A stretch of 13,978 nt of DNA from Stecheria intestinalis (GTDB taxonomy: Bacteria > Bacillota_I > Bacilli_A > Erysipelotrichales > Erysipelotrichaceae), in assembly GCF_009696165.1 (NCBI RefSeq), contig NZ_VUMN01000027.1, positions 26,819-40,796 on the forward strand. Direction: 5' to 3'. Position 1 is the first letter of the stretch. Each line of letters opens with the position of its first letter. The notes under the pieces were generated by a model. That model did no database searches. It had not been told where the DNA came from and saw only the letters and a program-made list of their open reading frames with translations. Shown here in pieces: positions 3,881-13,836 of this stretch. The position numbers were made by a program, and so were the translations under genes.

Positions 3881-5008
3881 TTACTGTCCTCTCTTTTCTT
3901 TCATAATTGCTTCTGCCGCAGCCGCAAAATCCGCTTTGCTGAGTTCGCTTCTTCCGCTTACGATCTTCGGGCTTCCGCCTCCTGAACATCCTGTCTTCTG
4001 CTTCAGAATTTCCAGAAAGTCACGTGCTTTCTGGTCTGGTGACACGATAGCAAAGTCAATCAGACTACCTGCGGAATAGATCATCGTCGTGTACTTTGCC
4101 ACCCTTCCATATTCCTGTGAGAACACTCTCAGCTTCTGACTCTGATTCTTTCCGAGGTCAATGATCAGAGGCTCTTTCTCTGCATATTCAGCTGCTTCAT
4201 ATCTGCAGAGACTCCTGGTCAGATCCTGAAGCTCTGCCTTCTGCTTCTTATTGTTTTCAAAGAGCTTCTCCAGTTTCTCTGGCAGCTCACTGATGCCGGT
4301 ATTCAGAATTCCGGCAAGCTCATGCAGAAGACGGTCTTCCCTGACCAGCATCCAGTCAGCTGCTCTGCTGCAGGCAAAATAGATTCTGGTACCTGAGCTG
4401 ATATGCTCGCTGTGAAGCAGCACAAAGCTTCCGATCTCTCCCGTATGATTTACATGCGGCGTTCCGCATGGCTGCTGATCCAGCCCTTTGATCGTAACGA
4501 TCCGCACCTGGTCATATTTCGCATATTCAGGATCCGGATACTCTCTTCCCTTCACATACGAAAAGGTCACCGGCACATCCATTTCGATTGCGTGATTGAT
4601 ATAGCTCTGCACTTCTTCCAGATGAGATGGAGGCAGATCTCTTGTATTGATGTCATAGTAGGAATTCTCCGGATTCACATTTGTGGATGAAATCAGAATT
4701 CCTTTCTTTCGGTAATACGTATCCAGAATATGAAGCGCTGTCTGGGGAGCAGTTACCGCCAGCCGGTATTCTGCATCCAATTCCATGACAATCGGATTAT
4801 GCAGAATTCCATTCACATGATGCCAGAGCTCCTCTCCCTCCCAGTAAAGTCCATCCACGTTCAAGCCATTGATCGTTCCACGATCATCAGGCATCCCGCC
4901 TTTTTCGCCATAAAACACCGTATCGGCAAAGCGATACCACCCATCCTTCTCGTCAGCGATTTCCGTTACACAGGAAACACGCTCATAATGATCATACCTT
5001 CCCTGCAT
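3881..5008 (-). CDS. AlaX-L-type alanyl-tRNA editing protein: AlaRS editing/SAD domain plus a C-terminal DHHA1-like domain.
   Basis: N-terminal DTVFYGEKGGMPDDRGTING matches the AlaRS-family FYPexGGQxxDxG motif. The SAD motifs QTALHIL (HxxxH position) and CGTPHV (CxxxH) are present. The C-terminal GGGSPKIVSG resembles the GGG motif of the AlaRS C-domain. A strong RBS AAAGGAGGA precedes the ATG at 5008. Confidence 0.75.
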   Translation of the reverse strand: MQGRYDHYERVSCVTEIADEKDGWYRFADTVFYGEKGGMPDDRGTINGLNVDGLYWEGEELWHHVNGILHNPIVMELDAEYRLAVTAPQTALHILDTYYRKKGILISSTNVNPENSYYDINTRDLPPSHLEEVQSYINHAIEMDVPVTFSYVKGREYPDPEYAKYDQVRIVTIKGLDQQPCGTPHVNHTGEIGSFVLLHSEHISSGTRIYFACSRAADWMLVREDRLLHELAGILNTGISELPEKLEKLFENNKKQKAELQDLTRSLCRYEAAEYAEKEPLIIDLGKNQSQKLRVFSQEYGRVAKYTTMIYSAGSLIDFAIVSPDQKARDFLEILKQKTGCSGGGSPKIVSGRSELSKADFAAAAEAIMKEKRGQ

Positions 5009-5628
5009 TCATATCCTCCTTTGCTGATCTTGCAATCTGGATCATCCGAACTCCGCCATCTGCAATCAGAATTGATCCGAGCGAAACCATATATCAGTCG
5101 ATTCCCCGGTCCATAGCAGCCAGAATATCCCCTCCGGAAACACCGAACAGAATCCCTGCAGCCAGGATCAGAATTGCTCTGCCTGCCATCGTTCATACAG
5201 ATTCTGACAATCTGATTCTGTTTTTCCCTGCCTAGCATTGCAGAACAGTACAGCACCAGATTTGCGCCTTCGGAATGTCCTCCGATCAGATATCGCCGTT
5301 CCGGTTTCATCACATGTTCTGCATAGCTCAGGGCGTACTGCTGGGAAATGGTCTTTGCAAAGGGAATCATGAAATCTTCCATTCACTCCGCTATAGAAGT
5401 ATCTGTTCCCCGGAAAGAAAGATAAGGGCACCGCTCATTCAGAACTATTTCAACTGCTCCGAACTGACATGCATGCTTCTCATCAAAATGATCCTCATAG
5501 TTTCTGAGAACCAGTCTTCCGGACCTTTCCGTATCAGCTGCAAGCATGAAATGATCAGTATCGCTGAATGTATCTTCTGCAAGCGGAATATTCCGGTGCC
5601 AGAGCAGGTAATCCTTCAGCGTATCCAT
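4966..5628 (-). pseudogene. DUF2974 (Mbeg1-like) lipase-fold alpha/beta hydrolase. It is disrupted by an in-frame TGA and is degenerate or truncated after the nucleophile elbow.
   Basis: ORFs 5383..5730 and 4966..5382 lie in the same frame, separated only by a TGA at 5385-5383: ...SFRGTDTSIAE*MEDFMIPF.... The TGA sits where the family has a Trp (TGG) after the FRGTD motif. The nucleophile elbow GHSEG (IGGHSEGANLVLY) is present. After ~25 more residues the translation becomes R/C/G-rich nonsense and then runs into alaX-L. The total length of about 220 codons is shorter than typical family members. The likely original start is ATG 5628 (MDTLKDYLLWHRN...) with RBS GAAAGAAGGG. Confidence 0.55.
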
Positions 5629-5664: not shown

Positions 5665-5691
5665 AAAAGGACTGCTTCCCGCAGTCCTTTT
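5665..5691. terminator. Intrinsic terminator ending the EncFtn-encapsulin transcript (bidirectional shape).
   Basis: An 8-bp stem AGGACTGC/GCAGTCCT (extendable to 11 bp) with loop TTCCC, flanked by AAAA and TTTT. It lies 23-50 nt downstream of the encapsulin stop (5714) on the minus strand. Confidence 0.6.
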
Positions 5692-5713
5692 GTCATAGAC
5701 CGATCCGTGTCTT

Positions 5714-6487
5714 CTATCCCTGATAAACAACTACTGCATTCGGATTTTTCAGTCTCAGGAGAACCGTCTCGAATACCCGGAAATCATGATTCATTTCTGA
5801 AGATCCGAGGTATCCGGTCACAAGATCCTGTCCGATCGCAAGATCCATGTTCTGCTCATCCGGCGCTGCCAGCAGAGCAGTCTTTGCCGGAAGTACCGGT
5901 GACTGATAAATCTTTCCTTCAATCAGCGCACTGATTCTCTGACTTTCCAGGGTACCGGTGCCAGGCTGAATCCGCTGCAGCATTGCAAAGACATCCGGAC
6001 TCACCACCAGAACCTTTGAACCATAGGTACGATGTTCCAGCATGAACTGCAGGCCGGCAGAGACTGCCGCAAATGCATGTTCATCTTTATCCCAATTCTG
6101 CATCTTGATCGTCTTGCCAGGCTTGCTGACAAGACCAGCCGCACCCGTCTCTTCGTCTCCGAGGAAAATGAGCTTATCCTCATTCAGAGCCGTATTCACT
6201 GCCGCAGAAACTGCCTCGGAATAAGACATCGGCACATTGAGCCGTTCTGAAGTCTCCAGTTCTCTCCAGCCCAGCGTGAAATCAGAAGAGAGCTCCGTCA
6301 GCATTGCAAACTGCTTTTTTCCATCTTTTACGATCTCAGCTGCCGGTACCCCTGCCCCAAGCGGGCCATAGATATTCAGAAATCTTCTGCCTGTCAGCAC
6401 AGAACGTGCTGCTGCTACTACTTTTTCATCAATTGCTTTCCATTGTGCCTCTGAAAGCTTGCTGTCACTTCTCATCAGGAATTCCAT
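5714..6487 (-). CDS. Encapsulin nanocompartment shell protein (Family 1, HK97 fold, Linocin_M18-like).
   Basis: 257 aa. N-terminal MEFLMRSDSKLSEAQWKAIDEKVV...GRRFLNIYGPLG and C-terminal LAIGQDLVTGY...FRVFETVLLRLKNPNAVVV align along their length with the Thermotoga maritima encapsulin ([20 protein letters not shown]...GRKFVDVEGPYG...LILGQDLSIGY...FTFQVVNPEALILL). The RBS AGGAGG is embedded in the 3' end of the upstream cargo gene. Confidence 0.9.
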   Translation of the reverse strand: MEFLMRSDSKLSEAQWKAIDEKVVAAARSVLTGRRFLNIYGPLGAGVPAAEIVKDGKKQFAMLTELSSDFTLGWRELETSERLNVPMSYSEAVSAAVNTALNEDKLIFLGDEETGAAGLVSKPGKTIKMQNWDKDEHAFAAVSAGLQFMLEHRTYGSKVLVVSPDVFAMLQRIQPGTGTLESQRISALIEGKIYQSPVLPAKTALLAAPDEQNMDLAIGQDLVTGYLGSSEMNHDFRVFETVLLRLKNPNAVVVYQG

Positions 6488-6492
6488 ATGAT

Positions 6493-6849
6493 TTATTCCT
6501 CCTTCATGCTTCCTACTGTCACCTGACTCACGCCGGGAATCTCTGCCGGCTTGATGCCAAGTTCTTCCAGCATTTCTAATACTTCCTTCTCACCAGACGC
6601 ATACAGGTCTCCCTCTTTCGGATCCAGATACTTCAGCAGAGTCAGAAGTTCTCCCATATGTGTCTTTTCTTCATCACGAATGTCAGAGAGCACTGCTTTC
6701 GCAACCGGATCATCGGTTGCCTGAACGTGTGCATCATACCCATAGATCGCTTCCAGTTCTCCGGAGAGATCTGCCCGAATTGCCTGCACCAGTTCCTCTT
6801 TTGTCATCTTGCGCTCTACATTTGCTGAAAACGGATTGCCAAACATCAT
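6493..6849 (-). CDS. Encapsulated ferritin-like protein (EncFtn/Flp) cargo with a C-terminal encapsulin targeting peptide.
   Basis: 118 aa four-helix ferritin-like protein with di-iron ligand context (SGELEAIYGY, DEEKTHMGE = ExxH). The C-terminus ...IPGVSQVTVGSMKEE matches the TVGSLK-type Family-1 cargo-loading peptide. The gene sits immediately upstream of the shell gene with a 5-nt gap. RBS AAAGGAGGT lies 6 nt before the ATG. Confidence 0.8.
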   Translation of the reverse strand: MMFGNPFSANVERKMTKEELVQAIRADLSGELEAIYGYDAHVQATDDPVAKAVLSDIRDEEKTHMGELLTLLKYLDPKEGDLYASGEKEVLEMLEELGIKPAEIPGVSQVTVGSMKEE

Positions 6850-6997
6850 TCATTACCTCCTTTGAGAATGAGAAGCAGATCTGCAATATTCCAGTCTGCT
6901 CTCCTTATCTTGCAATAACACTATAGCATGGAAGCCAGACCATGAATTGCGAAAATTACTTCATTTTTTATCTTATTTACCTGATTAATTCATTTTA

Positions 6998-7012
6998 GGA
7001 TAATTATTGTCC
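6998..7012. promoter_or_regulatory. Candidate Fur/PerR-family 7-1-7 operator in the divergent EncFtn / MFS promoter region.
   Basis: GGATAAT-T-ATTGTCC, compared with the Bacillus Fur consensus TGATAAT-N-ATTATCA and the PerR consensus TTATAAT-N-ATTATAA. It is an imperfect dyad about 150 nt upstream of both divergent start codons, in an AT-rich intergenic region (6850-7162). Confidence 0.3.
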
Positions 7013-7162
7013 GATTTTAATGCATGATCTTCCTCAGAAACAGATTCTATGCAATTTATTTTCCTGCTCAGCACCAGAGAAAAAAATCCTTCCTCTTCCC
7101 GCATGAATCATCTCTAGGTAATAGAATATAAGAAAGCGCTTAAGCTTCAGAAAGAAGATTCT

Positions 7163-8335
7163 ATGAAAAAAGAGACAATCCAGTGTTTTCTGATGGATGG
7201 CCTGTTCTGGGCAATCATGGCCATCTTCTACGGATATTTAACGTATTACCTGAGATCGATCGGGTATTCCAGTGCCCAGATCGGCATCATGACCGCAATC
7301 GGAAGCATCCTTTCTGCTCTGACGCAGAACGTTCTCGGAACTCTGAATGACAAAGGCGGCTGGTGGAACTGGAAGCGGATCTTCTGTCTCATGCTGGGAC
7401 TTACTATCCTCTTGCTCGTATGTCTGACGATCATCCATCAGCCAGTGATTGCAGGGACGATATTCATCCTGGCAATGATTTCCGGAAACGGCATGATGCC
7501 ATTCACAGTCATCATCTGCTTCGAATACTATAACAGCGGCTTCCCGGTCGATTATGGAAAAGCCAGAGCTGGCGGATCTTTGTTCTATGCCATTGCAGTC
7601 TATCTGATCGGCGTTCTGACCGAGAAAGCTGGCCCGCTCATGGTGCCGGTTTCCGGAATCATTCTCTGCATTGCCGAAGGAGTGGTACTGATGACGATGA
7701 AAGCATCTGGGCAGCAGAGAACCTCAGAAAAAGCAGAAAAGAGAGTCGGAGTGAATGAGATTCGCAGGCGGTATCCGGCATTCTTTCTGATGACGATTGG
7801 CCTAGTTCTGCTGTTTGCATTCCACAATGGAACCAATACCTATCTCCTGCCGATTCTGGAACGGGTCGGCGGAGATACCCGGTCACTCGGTACTGCTTTT
7901 GCAATCTCGGCAATCACGGAAGTTCCGGTGGAAATATTCATCGAAAAAATCCTGAAGAAGATTTCTGCAGATAAGCTGCTGCTGATTTCAGGCTTCGGAT
8001 TCTTCTTCAAGGGAATCATGTATCTAGCAGCAGGAAGTGTCGCTGTCATCTATCTTTCCCAGCTGCTTGAAATCGTCTCCTATGCATTCTATTCCGGTGC
8101 AGCGCCATATTATGCCAATGAACGGATTGCCCCAGGATATCTTTCCGGTGCTCAGGCAATGATGACTTCCTGCACCATGATCGGGGCTGTGCTTGGCAAT
8201 CTGACATCGGGATGGATCTATGAAGGCCTTGGCCTTTCCAGCATGATTCTGCTCTGCATCGGATACGCAGCAGCAGGAACACTGATCATCAGCAGCTCTC
8301 TGAACTTGGAACGCAAAAAGGGAGCAGCTTCCTGA
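7163..8335 (+). CDS. Major facilitator superfamily (MFS) transporter.
   Basis: 390 aa with about 12 hydrophobic helices split into two halves by a charged loop (KASGQQRTSEKAEKRVGVNEIRRRY). Start MKKETIQ is preceded by an AGAAAGAAG RBS. Confidence 0.8.
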   Translation: MKKETIQCFLMDGLFWAIMAIFYGYLTYYLRSIGYSSAQIGIMTAIGSILSALTQNVLGTLNDKGGWWNWKRIFCLMLGLTILLLVCLTIIHQPVIAGTIFILAMISGNGMMPFTVIICFEYYNSGFPVDYGKARAGGSLFYAIAVYLIGVLTEKAGPLMVPVSGIILCIAEGVVLMTMKASGQQRTSEKAEKRVGVNEIRRRYPAFFLMTIGLVLLFAFHNGTNTYLLPILERVGGDTRSLGTAFAISAITEVPVEIFIEKILKKISADKLLLISGFGFFFKGIMYLAAGSVAVIYLSQLLEIVSYAFYSGAAPYYANERIAPGYLSGAQAMMTSCTMIGAVLGNLTSGWIYEGLGLSSMILLCIGYAAAGTLIISSSLNLERKKGAAS

Positions 8336-8362
8336 ATCGCTGCTTCCTCGCTTCCCATCACA

Positions 8363-8842
8363 TCAATGAGTTTTCTTTCTGCTGCGCAGATTCAGAACCA
8401 GATTGACCGCCAAGGTAATGATTCCAGCGAAAATCAGCAGCCAGCCGATTCCGATCATCCAGAAATTCTCATGCAGGATGCCAGCTTCATCCACATATTC
8501 CACGCTAGCACCTTTAATCAGGAACAGCAGTACTCCGGCAATCACAAGTATTGCTCCCGACAAAGAAGCTGCCATATTTCTTTTTGCACGTTTTCCCTCG
8601 CTGCCGTCATCAATCAGTTTTTCTGCCATGTCATTCATCGTTTCTTCTCCTCCGAATATGAGCCGGTCCAGGGAGACCTGAAAGGTCCTAGAGATTTCCA
8701 TCAGCATCTCAATATCAGGAAGATTCTTTCCGTTCTCCCAGTTGGAGATTGCCTGACGAGTCACATGCAGCCGGGCAGCCATCTCTTCCTGAGTCAGATG
8801 ATTTTCTTTTCTGATTTCTCTGATCTGTTCTGAAAATTCCAT
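8363..8842 (-). CDS. XRE-family HTH transcriptional regulator with a C-terminal two-helix membrane anchor.
   Basis: N-terminal LTQEEMAARLHVTRQAISNWENGKNLP is a classic Cro/C1-type HTH. The C-terminus has two predicted transmembrane helices (ILVIAGVLLFLI and IGIGWLLIFAGIITLAV). RBS GGAGAAAAGG. Confidence 0.85.
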   Translation of the reverse strand: MEFSEQIREIRKENHLTQEEMAARLHVTRQAISNWENGKNLPDIEMLMEISRTFQVSLDRLIFGGEETMNDMAEKLIDDGSEGKRAKRNMAASLSGAILVIAGVLLFLIKGASVEYVDEAGILHENFWMIGIGWLLIFAGIITLAVNLVLNLRSRKKTH

Positions 8843-10680: not shown

Positions 10681-10686
10681 CGTTAG

Positions 10687-11043
10687 TGGAGCTGACGGGA
10701 GTCGAACCCGTGTCCAAGAATAGTCCCACATTCAGGAATCTACAGTTTATTGCACTGTAAGATAAGACAGCAGACAGAACAGTACACGAATCATCTGCTG
10801 AATCTGCCTGTAAATTGTCGGGATCCCCCTACAGGCATCAGGATCACCTTATCCGTTTTGATTACACAATCCGGGCAGAACGGCTAATACACGGATCGGG
10901 CGCTGCAGACGCGTCTAGCGTCAATTAAGCAGCGAAAGCAAAGCTTGTGCTATTGTTATTAGCGTTTAAATTTAGTAGTGATTAGGTCACCGCTCCACTG
11001 CATCCTGAATCAGACATAAACCTGTCGAAACCATGACAGCCCC
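10687..11043 (-). ncRNA. ssrA: tmRNA (SsrA), about 357 nt.
   Basis: The minus-strand 5' end is GGGGCTGTCATGGTTTCGACAGG..., matching the tmRNA 5' consensus. The 3' end is ...GGACACGGGTTCGACTCCCGTCAGCTCCA, giving a T-arm and an acceptor stem that pairs with the 5' GGGGCTG. The internal tag ORF is GCT AAT AAC AAT AGC ACA AGC TTT GCT TTC GCT GCT TAA. smpB lies immediately upstream. Confidence 0.85.
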
Positions 11044-11111: not shown

Positions 11112-11578
11112 CTAGCGATGAAACTTCAGAGCCTTTTCCATTTCCCGTTTTGCATCGCGAAGCTTCTGGTTCTGGCGCTTATCATAGAGATTCTTGCCCT
11201 TTGCTAGGGCAATCTCCATCTTTGCGCGGCCATTCTTCAGGTACATACGTACCGGCACTAACGTATAGCCCTTCAGACGCACCTTGTCATAAAGCTTGCG
11301 GATCTCATACTTATGCAGCAGCAGCTTCCGGTCTCGCTCTTCGTCAACATTGAAGATGCTGCCATACGTGTATGCAGAAATATGCATGCCCTTGATCCAT
11401 GCTTCACCTTTATAGATTGAGATATATGCATCCTTGAACTGCACATGTCCTGCCCGTACGGATTTGATTTCCGTTCCAGTCAGTTCAATGCCGGTTTCAT
11501 AGGTCTCTTCGAGAAAATAATCATGTCTTGCTCTGCGATTGACCGCTACATTTTTCTCACCGGTATTTTTTTCTGCCA
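11112..11578 (-). CDS. smpB: SsrA-binding protein SmpB.
   Basis: MAEKNTGEKNVAVNRRARHDYFLEETYETGIELTGTEIKSVRAG...LVPVRMYLKNGRAKMEIALAKGKNLYDKR is collinear with Bacillus subtilis SmpB and is about 155 aa. ATG 11578 has an AGAAGGAAA RBS. The ORF-track start at 11651 is too long for the family. The start overlaps the rnr 3' end by about 22 nt. Confidence 0.9.
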
Positions 11579-13836
11579 TTCTGTTTCCTTCTCGCATCTC
11601 TGCCATAGCGGAAATGCTTGCCATAATCGTAAGAGGAATAAGGTTCCTCAACCTGTTCTGACTTCCGTGCCGCTCTGGACCTGGCAGTGTATTTCTTGCC
11701 GGCAGAAACCGGAGCAGGCTTTCTGACAGCCTTCATATTCTGCAAGCCGAAGTCTACGGTCTTCGCATCTTTAGAAGCACCAAGCACCTTGATCTTGACC
11801 GTCTGGCCTACCCGATATTCGGCTCGTGTACGCTCACCGCGCAGACACATCTTTTTCTCGTCAAAGTGATAGAAGTCATCAGACATCGTATTCACGCGGA
11901 CCATGCCTTCCACGGTATTCGGAAGCTGCACAAAGAAGCCGAAATTGGTCACCGTCGTGATGATACCCTCGGCAGTCTCGCCGATATGATCCATCATGTA
12001 CTCTGCTTTCTTCATATCGTCGCAGTCGAATTCTGCATTCTGGCTTGCCCGTTCCCGTTCGCTGGAACTCTCGGAATAGGCCTGCATCTTCTTCTGATCT
12101 GCTGAAGGATTTCCCTGGAAATGTTCATAGTCATACTTCCGCAGCATGCGGTGCACGATCAGATCCGGATAACGGCGGATCGGAGAAGTGAAATGCAGAT
12201 ACTCCGGTTCTGCCAATCCGAAATGTCCTGCACACACACTGTCATACCTAGCTTTCGCCATCGTTCTCAGCAACTGCTGGGAAAGAACCGGATATTCCTC
12301 CGAATCTTTGCAGCCGAGAAGATACTGCTGAACACTCTTCGGGCTCAGATCCTTAGAAGAGAACGGAACGCCAAGCAGGTACGAAAGCTTCATGAAATCC
12401 TGAAGTTTCTTTTTCTGAGGTTCCTCATGAATCCGGTACACGCATGGAAATTCATGTTTATGCATGAAGTCAGCAACACAGACATTTGCCGCAATCATGC
12501 AGTCTTCGATCATCTCTTCGGCATGACCATGATGCTTCGGGCGGATCTCATACGGATGTCCCTTTTCATCGCAGAGAATCTCGGATTCCGTCGTATCGAA
12601 ATCAATCGCACCCTTCTGCTTCCGGTGAGCACGGATCGCATCTGCACACGCTGCCAGAGTCTCAAAGAGATTTCCAAGATGTTCATACTGTGCTTTTCTC
12701 TCTGCATTTCCTTGCAGGATTTCATTGACATGATCATAAGTCATCCGCTCAGCAGACCGCATGAAGGATGGATAGAGCTTATAGGATGCAATAGAGCCAT
12801 CTTTCCTGACCTGCATCTCACAGGTGTTGGTAAGTCTAACCACATGCGGATTCAGGCTGCAGATGCCATTGCTCAGAATATGCGGCAGCATCGGCACGAC
12901 CCGATCCGTCACATAAGTAGAACAGCCTCTCTTCTCGGCTTCCTGATCCAGCGGGCTTCCTTCTGTCACATAGTGCGAAACATCTGCGATGCTGACTTTC
13001 AGCAGCCAGCCATTCTCATTCTCCTGAACTCCCACTGCATCATCGAAGTCCTTGGAATCATTGCCATCGATGGTGACGATGGTATCTTCTGTCAGATTGA
13101 CTCTTCCTTCCATTTCAGAAGGCTGAACTTCCTGAGGAATTGCTTCTGCCTGCTTCATCGCATCTTCCGGAAATTCCATGACGATGTCATAGTCCAGAAG
13201 AACCGAAAGGATATCTACCCCCGGATCGTCTTTATTGCCCAGAGTCTTCACCACTTCCAGATGAAGCGGTGAACCGTATTTCACCACCTGCATCATGACT
13301 TTCAGGCCAGGAATCGGGCGAAAGTCAGAAGGAGCAGTGATATCCATTCTGACACTCTGCAGATGAATATCATCTGGCAGGAAACGAAGTCCGTAAACCG
13401 TATCCACATAGGTCCCGATCACATGCGTATGCGCACGCTTCAGAACCTTGATTACAGTTCCGGTATAGCTGACTTCTCCGGTTTCCGGATTCAGATCCGG
13501 AATCGGCTTTGTCAGAACCGTATCGCCGTTCAGTGCATCTTTCTGATCCGGAACACGGATCAGAATGGATGGCTGATCCGGCCGGTCCACAAACCCCGTG
13601 CCGCGCTTGTTGATCTTGAGAATGCCCTTTACATAGCCAGCCTGTTCCAGCGTCTTGTAACGATTATTTGAAGTCCGGATCAGATCATCGTCTTCTTCCA
13701 TCTGATCCAGAGTCTTTCCGAGTTCCACAATCTCTGCTGATGCTGTCAGCTTCAGGCCATTCTTCAGTCTTTCCCGATCCAGACCGCCCTTGGCAGATTC
13801 CAGCAGTTCAAGTATCTGTTTCTTCAGTTCTTCCAT
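11557..13836 (-). CDS. rnr: Ribonuclease R (RNB-family 3'-5' exoribonuclease).
   Basis: 759 aa with an N-terminal HTH/cold-shock region, a central RNB domain, a C-terminal S1 domain, and the characteristic Lys/Arg-rich tail (KKYTARSRAARKSE...RRKQNGRKKYR). RBS GGAGTG lies before ATG 13836. It occupies the conserved position upstream of smpB-ssrA. Confidence 0.9.
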   Translation of the reverse strand: MEELKKQILELLESAKGGLDRERLKNGLKLTASAEIVELGKTLDQMEEDDDLIRTSNNRYKTLEQAGYVKGILKINKRGTGFVDRPDQPSILIRVPDQKDALNGDTVLTKPIPDLNPETGEVSYTGTVIKVLKRAHTHVIGTYVDTVYGLRFLPDDIHLQSVRMDITAPSDFRPIPGLKVMMQVVKYGSPLHLEVVKTLGNKDDPGVDILSVLLDYDIVMEFPEDAMKQAEAIPQEVQPSEMEGRVNLTEDTIVTIDGNDSKDFDDAVGVQENENGWLLKVSIADVSHYVTEGSPLDQEAEKRGCSTYVTDRVVPMLPHILSNGICSLNPHVVRLTNTCEMQVRKDGSIASYKLYPSFMRSAERMTYDHVNEILQGNAERKAQYEHLGNLFETLAACADAIRAHRKQKGAIDFDTTESEILCDEKGHPYEIRPKHHGHAEEMIEDCMIAANVCVADFMHKHEFPCVYRIHEEPQKKKLQDFMKLSYLLGVPFSSKDLSPKSVQQYLLGCKDSEEYPVLSQQLLRTMAKARYDSVCAGHFGLAEPEYLHFTSPIRRYPDLIVHRMLRKYDYEHFQGNPSADQKKMQAYSESSSERERASQNAEFDCDDMKKAEYMMDHIGETAEGIITTVTNFGFFVQLPNTVEGMVRVNTMSDDFYHFDEKKMCLRGERTRAEYRVGQTVKIKVLGASKDAKTVDFGLQNMKAVRKPAPVSAGKKYTARSRAARKSEQVEEPYSSYDYGKHFRYGRDARRKQNGRKKYR

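Follow-up and report, generated by a model that had tools for sequence, protein, structure and literature searches.

The gene pair of Stecheria intestinalis

Do two adjacent genes in the genome of Stecheria intestinalis encode an encapsulin nanocompartment, i.e., a protein shell together with an iron-oxidising cargo, and what kind of shell would its protomer build? We addressed this question for a stretch of 13,978 nt from contig NZ_VUMN01000027.1 (positions 26,819 to 40,796), in the following called the window. A preliminary description made from the sequence had placed two minus-strand open reading frames (ORFs) at 6849-6493 and 6487-5714, coordinates that proved to be exact, and had read them as an EncFtn-type cargo and an encapsulin shell, a reading that passed all tests applied at the level of sequence and fold. 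Based on hidden Markov model (HMM) matches above cut-off, fold matches, conserved ligands, a conserved targeting peptide, and conserved gene pairing, the pair is very probably a bicistronic operon of the Family 1 (classical) encapsulins, consisting of an iron-oxidising cargo and its shell. Thus, it represents an already known type of system. Public records already call close homologues of the shell "family 1 encapsulin nanocompartment shell protein", and a look-up of the exact shell sequence matched no record.

Both genes lie close together, with a gap of 5 nt between the stop codon of the cargo gene and the start codon of the shell gene. Since the ribosome-binding site of the shell gene sits within the last codons of the cargo gene (Table 1), the two are probably translationally coupled. 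A check of the C-termini of all ORFs in the window for the targeting motif revealed no second protein carrying such a peptide. In regard to base composition, the GC content of 0.47-0.51 over the operon equals that of the neighbouring genes, so that a compositional signal of horizontal transfer was rejected.

Shell protein

Matches to Linocin_M18/encapsulin models had been named in the preliminary description as a check of the 257-aa protein, and they were found far above the cut-offs. The NCBIfam equivalog model encap_f1 (NF041155) scored 244.9 bits (cut-off 100) and aligned residues 4-254 with profile positions 1-260 of 261, and Pfam Linocin_M18 gave 195 bits (1.7e-57; cut-off 24.3). Comparison with the sequences in PDB resulted in encapsulin shells only. 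The AlphaFold2 (AF2) model, calculated with 56 homologues, reached a predicted local distance difference test (pLDDT) of 90.3 and a predicted template modelling (TM) score of 0.86, and displayed an N-terminal helix (residues 13-30), a beta-hairpin (Table 1), and elements of the P- and A-domains.

Foldseek aligned this model with more than 40 encapsulin chains at TM scores of 0.80-0.93. The best of them (TM 0.91-0.93; root-mean-square deviation (rmsd) 1.6-2.1 Å) were the shell of Bacillus methanolicus (9fy6), an engineered encapsulin (8rvj), and EncA of Myxococcus xanthus (7s20/8vjo), followed by the shell of Quasibacillus thermotolerans (6nj8; TM 0.89), while shells with a triangulation number of T=1, i.e., those of Thermotoga maritima, Mycobacterium, and Haliangium, were more distant (TM 0.80-0.85; rmsd 3.8-5.7 Å). 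The sequence scores revealed the same order, with about 168 bits to M. xanthus, Q. thermotolerans, and B. methanolicus versus 71 bits to T. maritima. Thus, the full-length alignment with T. maritima encapsulin noted earlier does exist (residues 1-254 versus 1-262, 71 bits), but T. maritima is not the nearest relative, the shells of the EncA/Q. thermotolerans type being closer. By descent, the protein belongs to the M. xanthus/Q. thermotolerans (T=3/T=4) lineage and is not T. maritima-like.

Cargo protein and targeting peptide

The 118-aa protein encoded upstream, for which matches to ferritin-like models had likewise been anticipated, scored 147.1 bits with NCBIfam EncB_fam (NF058679), well above the cut-off of 90; with the M. 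xanthus EncB "exception" model it reached 33 bits (cut-off 210). Its only matches among PDB sequences were encapsulated ferritins, the best being M. xanthus EncC (7s8t) and EncFtn of Pyrococcus furiosus (5n5e). The AF2 model consisted of helices 17-44, 48-75, and 77-96 with a core pLDDT above 86, i.e., the two long antiparallel helices and short third helix of a half-ferritin fold, followed by a disordered tail (residues 97-118, non-helical; pLDDT below 50 at 103-110 and 115-118). All top 50 PDB fold matches were encapsulated ferritins, from P. furiosus, M. xanthus (EncC/EncB), Rhodospirillum rubrum, and Nitrosomonas europaea. Hence, the proposed check by structure prediction gave, for both monomers, confident models whose best fold matches were encapsulin shells and encapsulated ferritins, respectively. 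A length of 118 aa had been pointed out as a short EncFtn form; with about 100 structured residues and a tail of about 20, it corresponds to a normal ferritin-like protein with targeting peptide (FLP-TP), for which about 100 structured residues and a disordered tail of 10-40 residues are the standard layout (PMC11202242).

Putative iron ligands are strongly conserved: among 120 homologues, E31 is retained at 0.99, Y38 at 0.98, and E61 and H64 at 1.00, and E31, E61, and H64 are invariant in an alignment of 52 cargo sequences. Where several ExxH motifs had been described, we found the motif to be present once (E61-K-T-H64); a single copy per chain is to be expected, because the di-iron site of EncFtn spans the dimer interface (PMC11202242). 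Judged by their spacing, E31, Y38, E61, and H64 would correspond to E32, Y39, E62, and H65 of R. rubrum EncFtn, known from mutant structures.

The C-terminal tail had been taken for a Family 1 cargo-loading peptide, and its conservation supports this. A motif [TS][VI]G[SN][LM] was detected in the last 14 residues of 107 of the 120 cargo homologues, with Leu in the last position in 100 and Met in seven, and the 13 homologues without it are mostly fragments of 93-112 aa. The motif also matches published EncC, EncB, and IMEF peptides (PMC11202242, PMC10402063). In comparison with the consensus L(F)-X-V(I)-G-S/T-L(I), VTVGSM agrees, with both outer hydrophobic positions conservatively substituted. 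Accordingly, the Met in GSM, singled out earlier as a peculiarity, is a documented minor variant: besides the seven homologues, the M. xanthus EncC peptide is tabulated as RLTVGS(N)L(M) (PMC11202242, Table 2). The linker in front of the motif is poorly conserved (2-38% at positions 100-110), and a variable linker followed by a conserved peptide is the expected signature of a tethered peptide.

On the side of the shell, contacts of the M. xanthus peptide EKRLTVGSLR have been described for R28, R34, D38, D213, and D243 (PMC10402063). We mapped them by residue-level alignment, in which the numbering of that paper equals the chain index minus one. Three of the contacts, R28, R34, and D243, are retained here as R28, R34, and D221, and R34 and D221 are invariant in the alignments of the clade.

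A small group of cargo relatives from Atopobium and an oral taxon (P0153-P0157), 80-82% identical over about 90% of their length, end in ...GELFDSSTNN(K/ECR) without TVGSL. They may be cargos that lost the targeting peptide, or frameshifted gene calls.

Alternative identities of the two proteins

Several findings weigh against the encapsulin-operon reading. The cargo is only borderline with Pfam EncFtn-like (27.3 versus a cut-off of 27) and remains below the cut-off of the narrower ferritin model TIGR04535 (105.2 versus 125 bits). The acidic M. xanthus contacts D38 and D213 are replaced by N38 and G191 in the present shell, and the peptide tail is acidic (KEE) here versus basic (RR) in M. xanthus; docking of the peptide may therefore differ in its details from M. 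xanthus, and the loss of two acidic shell residues would fit the changed peptide tail. Furthermore, all solved Family 1 shells that were matched have an E-loop longer by 12-22 residues, so that normal assembly of the shell is not guaranteed.

Two other identities were weighed against this background. That the 257-aa protein is an HK97 major capsid protein of a phage or prophage, or a remnant of one, next to a ferritin-like gene by coincidence, might be concluded from a partial match to PHROG 264 (25 bits, residues 56-132) and from 21.5 bits with Pfam Major_capside, which lie below its cut-off of 26.8. The encap_f1 match of 245 bits covers the full length, though, the model has an N-terminal helix in place of an N-arm, the neighbours (an MFS transporter, a helix-turn-helix (HTH) regulator, an AlaX-like protein, and an aldolase) include no phage genes, and the pairing of cargo and shell is kept in 12 of 12 loci, so that the probability of a phage capsid is negligible and we excluded it for practical purposes, the marginal partial PHROG match being all that remained of it. 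The 118-aa protein, in turn, could be a free ferritin-like, COQ7, or rubrerythrin-type enzyme that is not encapsulated. Source annotations of its homologues read "ubiquinone biosynthesis protein COQ7", "rubrerythrin", or "demethoxyubiquinone hydroxylase", and Pfam COQ7 yielded 20.5 bits, below the cut-off of 23.5. Against a free enzyme stand the EncB_fam score, the conserved C-terminal TVGS[LM] after a variable, disordered linker, and a gene that always adjoins the shell gene, and encapsulin cargos annotated as Flp, rubrerythrin, or CoQ7 form one functional class (Andreas and Giessen, PMC8346489); we consider this explanation very improbable. An IMEF-type system as in the T=4 compartments of Firmicutes was rejected as well, since the cargo is an EncFtn with ExxH and the E-loop has 24 aa, not 45. 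Thus, the encapsulin operon is the reading we retain for both proteins.

Conservation of the gene pair

A locus scan with one genome per species returned 80 loci, of which the 12 closest (L001-L012; 52-96% shell identity) were compared. These are annotated as Erysipelotrichaceae, Lachnospiraceae, Dialister, Eubacterium, Olsenella, Atopobiaceae, and Coriobacteriaceae; Mitsuokella multacida (84%) and Mesosutterella (77%) were additional relatives of the shell among protein records. In each of the 12 loci of this clade of short shells, the gene immediately preceding the shell gene encodes the cargo. An all-versus-all comparison of the flanking ORFs in the 12 loci, searched for conserved accessory genes such as a ferredoxin, a regulator, or a second cargo, revealed none beyond close relatives. 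This bears out the view that the module is self-contained and separate from the genes downstream, as no flanking gene is conserved with the pair beyond near-identical loci. The pair is thus a self-contained two-gene module, and gut, rumen, and oral anaerobes from several phyla carry it in genomic surroundings that are unrelated. The tight clade of shells of 255-260 aa, spread over several phyla, would imply transfer across phyla, and this distribution agrees with a report that Family 1 operons are often transferred horizontally (PMC8346489).

In L004-L012, the cargo is much better conserved than the shell (74-84% versus 52-59% identity), whereas the reverse might have been anticipated for a structural cage and its enzyme.

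E-loop and shell size

Residue-level alignment placed residues 49-53 of the shell against chain positions 50-76 of EncA, i.e., 22 residues of the E-loop are lost, and because of this one deletion the HMMER alignment to T=3/T=4 shells splits in two. A gap of 13-22 aa separates every shell of the 255-260 aa clade from its relatives of 270-282 aa. We measured the E-loop segment from the conserved GPLG to the conserved DFTL motif and obtained 24 aa between G44 and D69 for the present shell, 21-26 aa for its clade, 33-38 aa for the 270-aa class, and 43-46 aa for the 278-aa class, which includes the solved T=3/T=4 relatives. Usual lengths are about 36 aa for T=1 and about 45 aa for T=3/T=4 shells, and the present shell falls short of both; a usual length is no formal criterion of Family 1, yet common to all its solved members.

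An exhaustive search at 50% identity clustering reduced the clade to one full-length representative, after which the scores dropped from 335 to 204 bits. Segment lengths of the 89 full-length representatives ranged without a break from 23 to 57 aa, the most frequent being 36-37 and 45 aa, and in a few further lineages the segment was short as well. The idea that the short E-loop marks a discrete class was therefore given up: lengths looked trimodal among close relatives but are continuous over the family, and the present shell lies at the short extreme of a range and is not a separate kind.

A segment of 24 aa was also found in a distant shell of about 248 aa with 36% identity (L074, 3502-4242), encoded in a metagenome-assembled genome of Anaerolineae, and the distant representatives P0315, P0317, and P0363 likewise have a short E-loop. 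This suggests that the shortening arose more than once.

Reviews count the E-loop among the universally conserved core elements and assign the two-fold pores to it (PMC11664910, PMC6668986, PMC11202242); its conformation is held to set the T number (PMC11664910, PMC6668986). Capsomers of the T=4 shell are interlocked with their neighbours at the three-fold interfaces by the extended E-loop, which forms a non-covalent chainmail (PMC6668986). Searching the literature accessible to us for short or truncated encapsulin E-loops, we found a general remark in PMC8346489 only and no paper on a short-E-loop subgroup of Family 1.

Which particle would such a protomer build? A large T=3 or T=4 compartment of 32-42 nm, like those of M. 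xanthus EncA and Q. thermotolerans, would agree with the nearest shells in sequence (about 168 versus 71 bits for T. maritima) and fold (TM up to 0.93 versus 0.80-0.85), and the nearest relatives of the cargo, EncC/EncB of M. xanthus, are loaded into a T=3 shell. The E-loop segments of the solved T=3/T=4 relatives, however, are 43-46 aa long versus 24 aa here, the interlocking of the T=4 shell relies on an extended E-loop (PMC6668986), and T=1 shells are known from M. xanthus EncA as well (PMC10402063), which means that the T number does not follow from lineage. The 20-24 nm particle expected earlier is not derivable from homology, because descent points to large shells and the missing loop argues against a chainmail. 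Altogether, we lean slightly towards a small T=1 60-mer; a T=3 or T=4 shell is unlikely but deserves consideration, and some other geometry is a further option.

In a more speculative vein, and with less confidence than we give to a large shell, the shells of the short-E-loop clade, which descend from the T=3/T=4 lineage, might assemble unlike any solved encapsulin, since about 20 residues are missing from the element responsible for the two-fold pores and the chainmail between capsomers. If so, conceivable outcomes would be a T=1 shell with a large-shell ancestor, two-fold openings of greater width, or a geometry that depends on the cargo or is non-canonical, and the clade would be a natural experiment on how the length of the E-loop sets capsid size. 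The faster divergence of shell than of cargo would then fit a shell adapting after the deletion.

Transcription boundaries and upstream elements

The positions of all elements discussed here are collected in Table 1. Downstream of the shell gene, a hairpin folds in its 71-nt context with -24.3 kcal/mol (z = -4.2), and only one of 200 shuffled sequences was as good. It had been described as a clean intrinsic terminator, which was confirmed in part: the hairpin with its strong fold is real, but the U-tract is weak (UUUU), and a consensus terminator scan did not call the hairpin at 5690-5665, since its U-run is short. Hairpins with 5-7 T were detected directly after the shell gene in L002, L004, L006, L009, and L010; terminators at the same place in related loci make termination here a habit of the family, and transcription probably ends at 5690-5665.

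The alternative is that the pair is not isolated, i.e., that the hairpin is leaky or mainly an RNA-stability element and transcription runs into the downstream genes on the same strand. Two points tell against an isolated pair. A good stem is followed by four U only, where an intrinsic terminator has a U-tract of at least about 5-6, in line with the missing call of the scan. The next ORF on this strand also begins 37 nt downstream with an SD-like sequence of its own, GAAAGAAGGG, and no space for a promoter. Read-through is nevertheless improbable in view of the strong fold, the clearer terminators at the equivalent place in five related loci, and the lack of any downstream gene conserved with the pair; moreover, this next ORF is a decayed Mbeg1-like fragment, which leaves nothing functional to co-express. 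We thus keep the hairpin as the probable end of a self-contained operon.

DNA similarity between the window and L001 stops at 5675, inside the loop of the hairpin, and L001 (2922-3019) continues with a different hairpin and T-run. This places a rearrangement breakpoint precisely where the operon ends.

Upstream of the cargo gene, a conserved block is possibly a promoter-upstream or operator element, and a candidate extended -10 element follows it; both may have a regulatory function and move together with the operon. Unlike this -10 element, a promoter called by the consensus scan at 7020-6992 is not conserved and was discarded, the numbers of promoters and terminators called by that scan being near the expectation from shuffled sequence. 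A stem-loop in the 5' untranslated region (5'-UTR) was obtained in minimum free energy (MFE) folds; a role of this leader in mRNA stability or regulation would be conceivable from the predicted structures. A search against Rfam at the gathering threshold found no family in the leader, and the only hit in the window was a tmRNA (11043-10684). A Fur/PerR-type operator GGACAATAATTATCC at 7012-6998 with a 7-1-7-like arrangement was rejected, as two hits with three mismatches in the window compare with 2.29 expected by chance.

Table 1. Coordinates of the features of the encapsulin locus in the window
Feature	Position	Strand	Remarks
Cargo gene, EncFtn-type ferritin-like protein with targeting peptide (FLP-TP)	6493..6849	-	118 aa, MMFGNPF...VTVGSMKEE
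Family 1 encapsulin shell gene, HK97 fold	5714..6487	-	257 aa
Targeting peptide V110-T-V-G-S-M115 with K-E-E tail	6496..6522	-	Motif conserved among homologues
Shortened E-loop, residues 45-68	6284..6355	-	Hairpin strands 49-54 and 57-62 (AF2); single gap versus relatives
Shine-Dalgarno (SD) sequence of cargo gene, AAAGGAGG	6856..6863	-	Read from sequence; 6 nt 5' of ATG at 6849
SD sequence of shell gene, AAGGAGG	6498..6504	-	Read from sequence; inside cargo codons K116-E117-E118
Terminator-like hairpin, AAAGGACUGC-GGGAA-GCAGUCCUUU	5665..5690	-	10-bp stem, 5-nt loop, then UUUU
Conserved upstream block, GGTAAATAAGATAAAAAA	6964..6981	-	Near-unchanged in window, L001, and L002 (different flanks in L002)
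Candidate extended -10 element, TGCTATAGT	6920..6928	-	TGnTATAGT; same relative position in L001, L002, and distant L006
5'-UTR stem-loop, GAGAGCAGA ... UCUGCUUCUC	6870..6903	-	MFE folds of window, L001 (larger loop), and L003

Neighbouring genes

An MFS transporter gene (7163-8335, plus strand) and a gene for a membrane-anchored regulator with HTH_3 and DUF3955 domains (8363-8842, minus strand) adjoin the operon. Among the compared loci, both are shared only with L001 from an uncultured rumen Erysipelotrichaceae, the DNA of which is 84% identical to the window over 5675-8548, and they reveal no evident link to the encapsulin. On the other side, the Mbeg1-like ORF (PF11187; 4966-5628, minus strand) starts with ATG at 5628 and contains an in-frame TGA at 5385-5383 ("...TDTSIAE*MEDFM..."). 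Its Pfam match covers the profile only up to position 121 of 224 and ends a short distance ahead of an AlaX-like gene starting at 5008, and the ORF is probably a decaying pseudogene.

Elsewhere in the window lies a trans-translation cluster. It comprises the tmRNA (10684-11043, minus strand; 121.5 bits versus Rfam), a 179-aa ORF upstream of it on the same strand (11112-11651), which we read as SmpB from its translation, and a 759-aa ORF (11557-13836, minus strand), likewise read as RNase R. As listed, the 179-aa ORF begins with TTG and shares 95 nt with the end of the 759-aa ORF, and its true start is probably located further downstream.

Proposed function and significance

From the family membership, folds, conserved ligands and peptide, and gene pairing observed at this locus, together with characterised homologues (PMC11202242, PMC8346489, PMC10402063), we infer a mechanism that comprises decamer formation, encapsulation, ferroxidase activity, mineralisation, and a physiological role. 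The cargo would assemble into D5 decamers whose dimer interfaces hold the di-iron ferroxidase centres (E31, E61, and H64, with Y38 nearby), and the VTVGSM peptide of its disordered tail would bind, during assembly, to a pocket between the N-helix and the P-domain on the inner face of the shell. Fe2+ entering via the shell pores would be oxidised by the cargo, and the ferric mineral would be retained in the shell. In a gut or rumen anaerobe, such a compartment could store iron and limit Fenton chemistry upon exposure to oxygen or peroxide.

The analysis corrects the frequent misannotation of the cargo as COQ7 or rubrerythrin and documents a compact two-gene module for iron sequestration common to strict gut and rumen anaerobes across phyla. 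The sole point with wider reach is the truncated E-loop, i.e., the question of what a protomer of the large-shell lineage builds with its E-loop reduced to a 6-residue hairpin, which is also relevant for engineering cage size and pore openings.

Comparison with known systems

EncFtn of R. rubrum and Haliangium ochraceum (5da5, 5n5f) shares the fold and the ferroxidase ligands with the present cargo, but scores only about 31 bits and carries the peptide SLGIGSLK instead of TVGSM (PMC11202242).

In the T=1 archetype, T. maritima encapsulin with its Flp (3dkt, 7kq5), a Flp/EncFtn cargo gene is located directly upstream of the shell gene as well. The N-terminus MEFL is common to both shells. Nevertheless, the T. 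maritima shell is distant (71 bits, 25-27% identity, TM 0.80-0.85), and its system uses a peptide of the type GG(S)D(S)LG(D)I(L)R(G)K(S)L (PMC11202242).

The T=4 shells of Q. thermotolerans and B. methanolicus (6nj8, 9fy6) were the top matches of the shell (168-169 bits, TM 0.89-0.93) and belong to iron-mineralising compartments of Bacillota whose cargo peptide contains TVGSL (PMC11202242). In contrast to the present EncFtn with its ExxH motif, the Q. thermotolerans cargo is an IMEF four-helix bundle without ExxH (PMC11202242), and the E-loop of both shells comprises 45 aa and forms the chainmail (PMC6668986), compared with 24 aa here.

M. xanthus differs in possessing several dispersed cargos (EncB, EncC, and EncD) instead of a single cargo gene beside the shell gene, and in an E-loop that is 22 residues longer. 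EncA forms T=3 shells, and T=1 when empty. Apart from that, no characterised system matches both proteins better than M. xanthus EncA (4pt2, 7s20, 7s2t, 8vjo) with EncB/EncC (7s5c, 7s5k, 7s8t): the shell resembles EncA with 167.6 bits, about 34-35% identity, and a TM score of about 0.9, and the cargo resembles EncC with 59.7 bits and a peptide core of the same type, TVGSL/M versus RLTVGSL (PMC10402063, PMC11202242).

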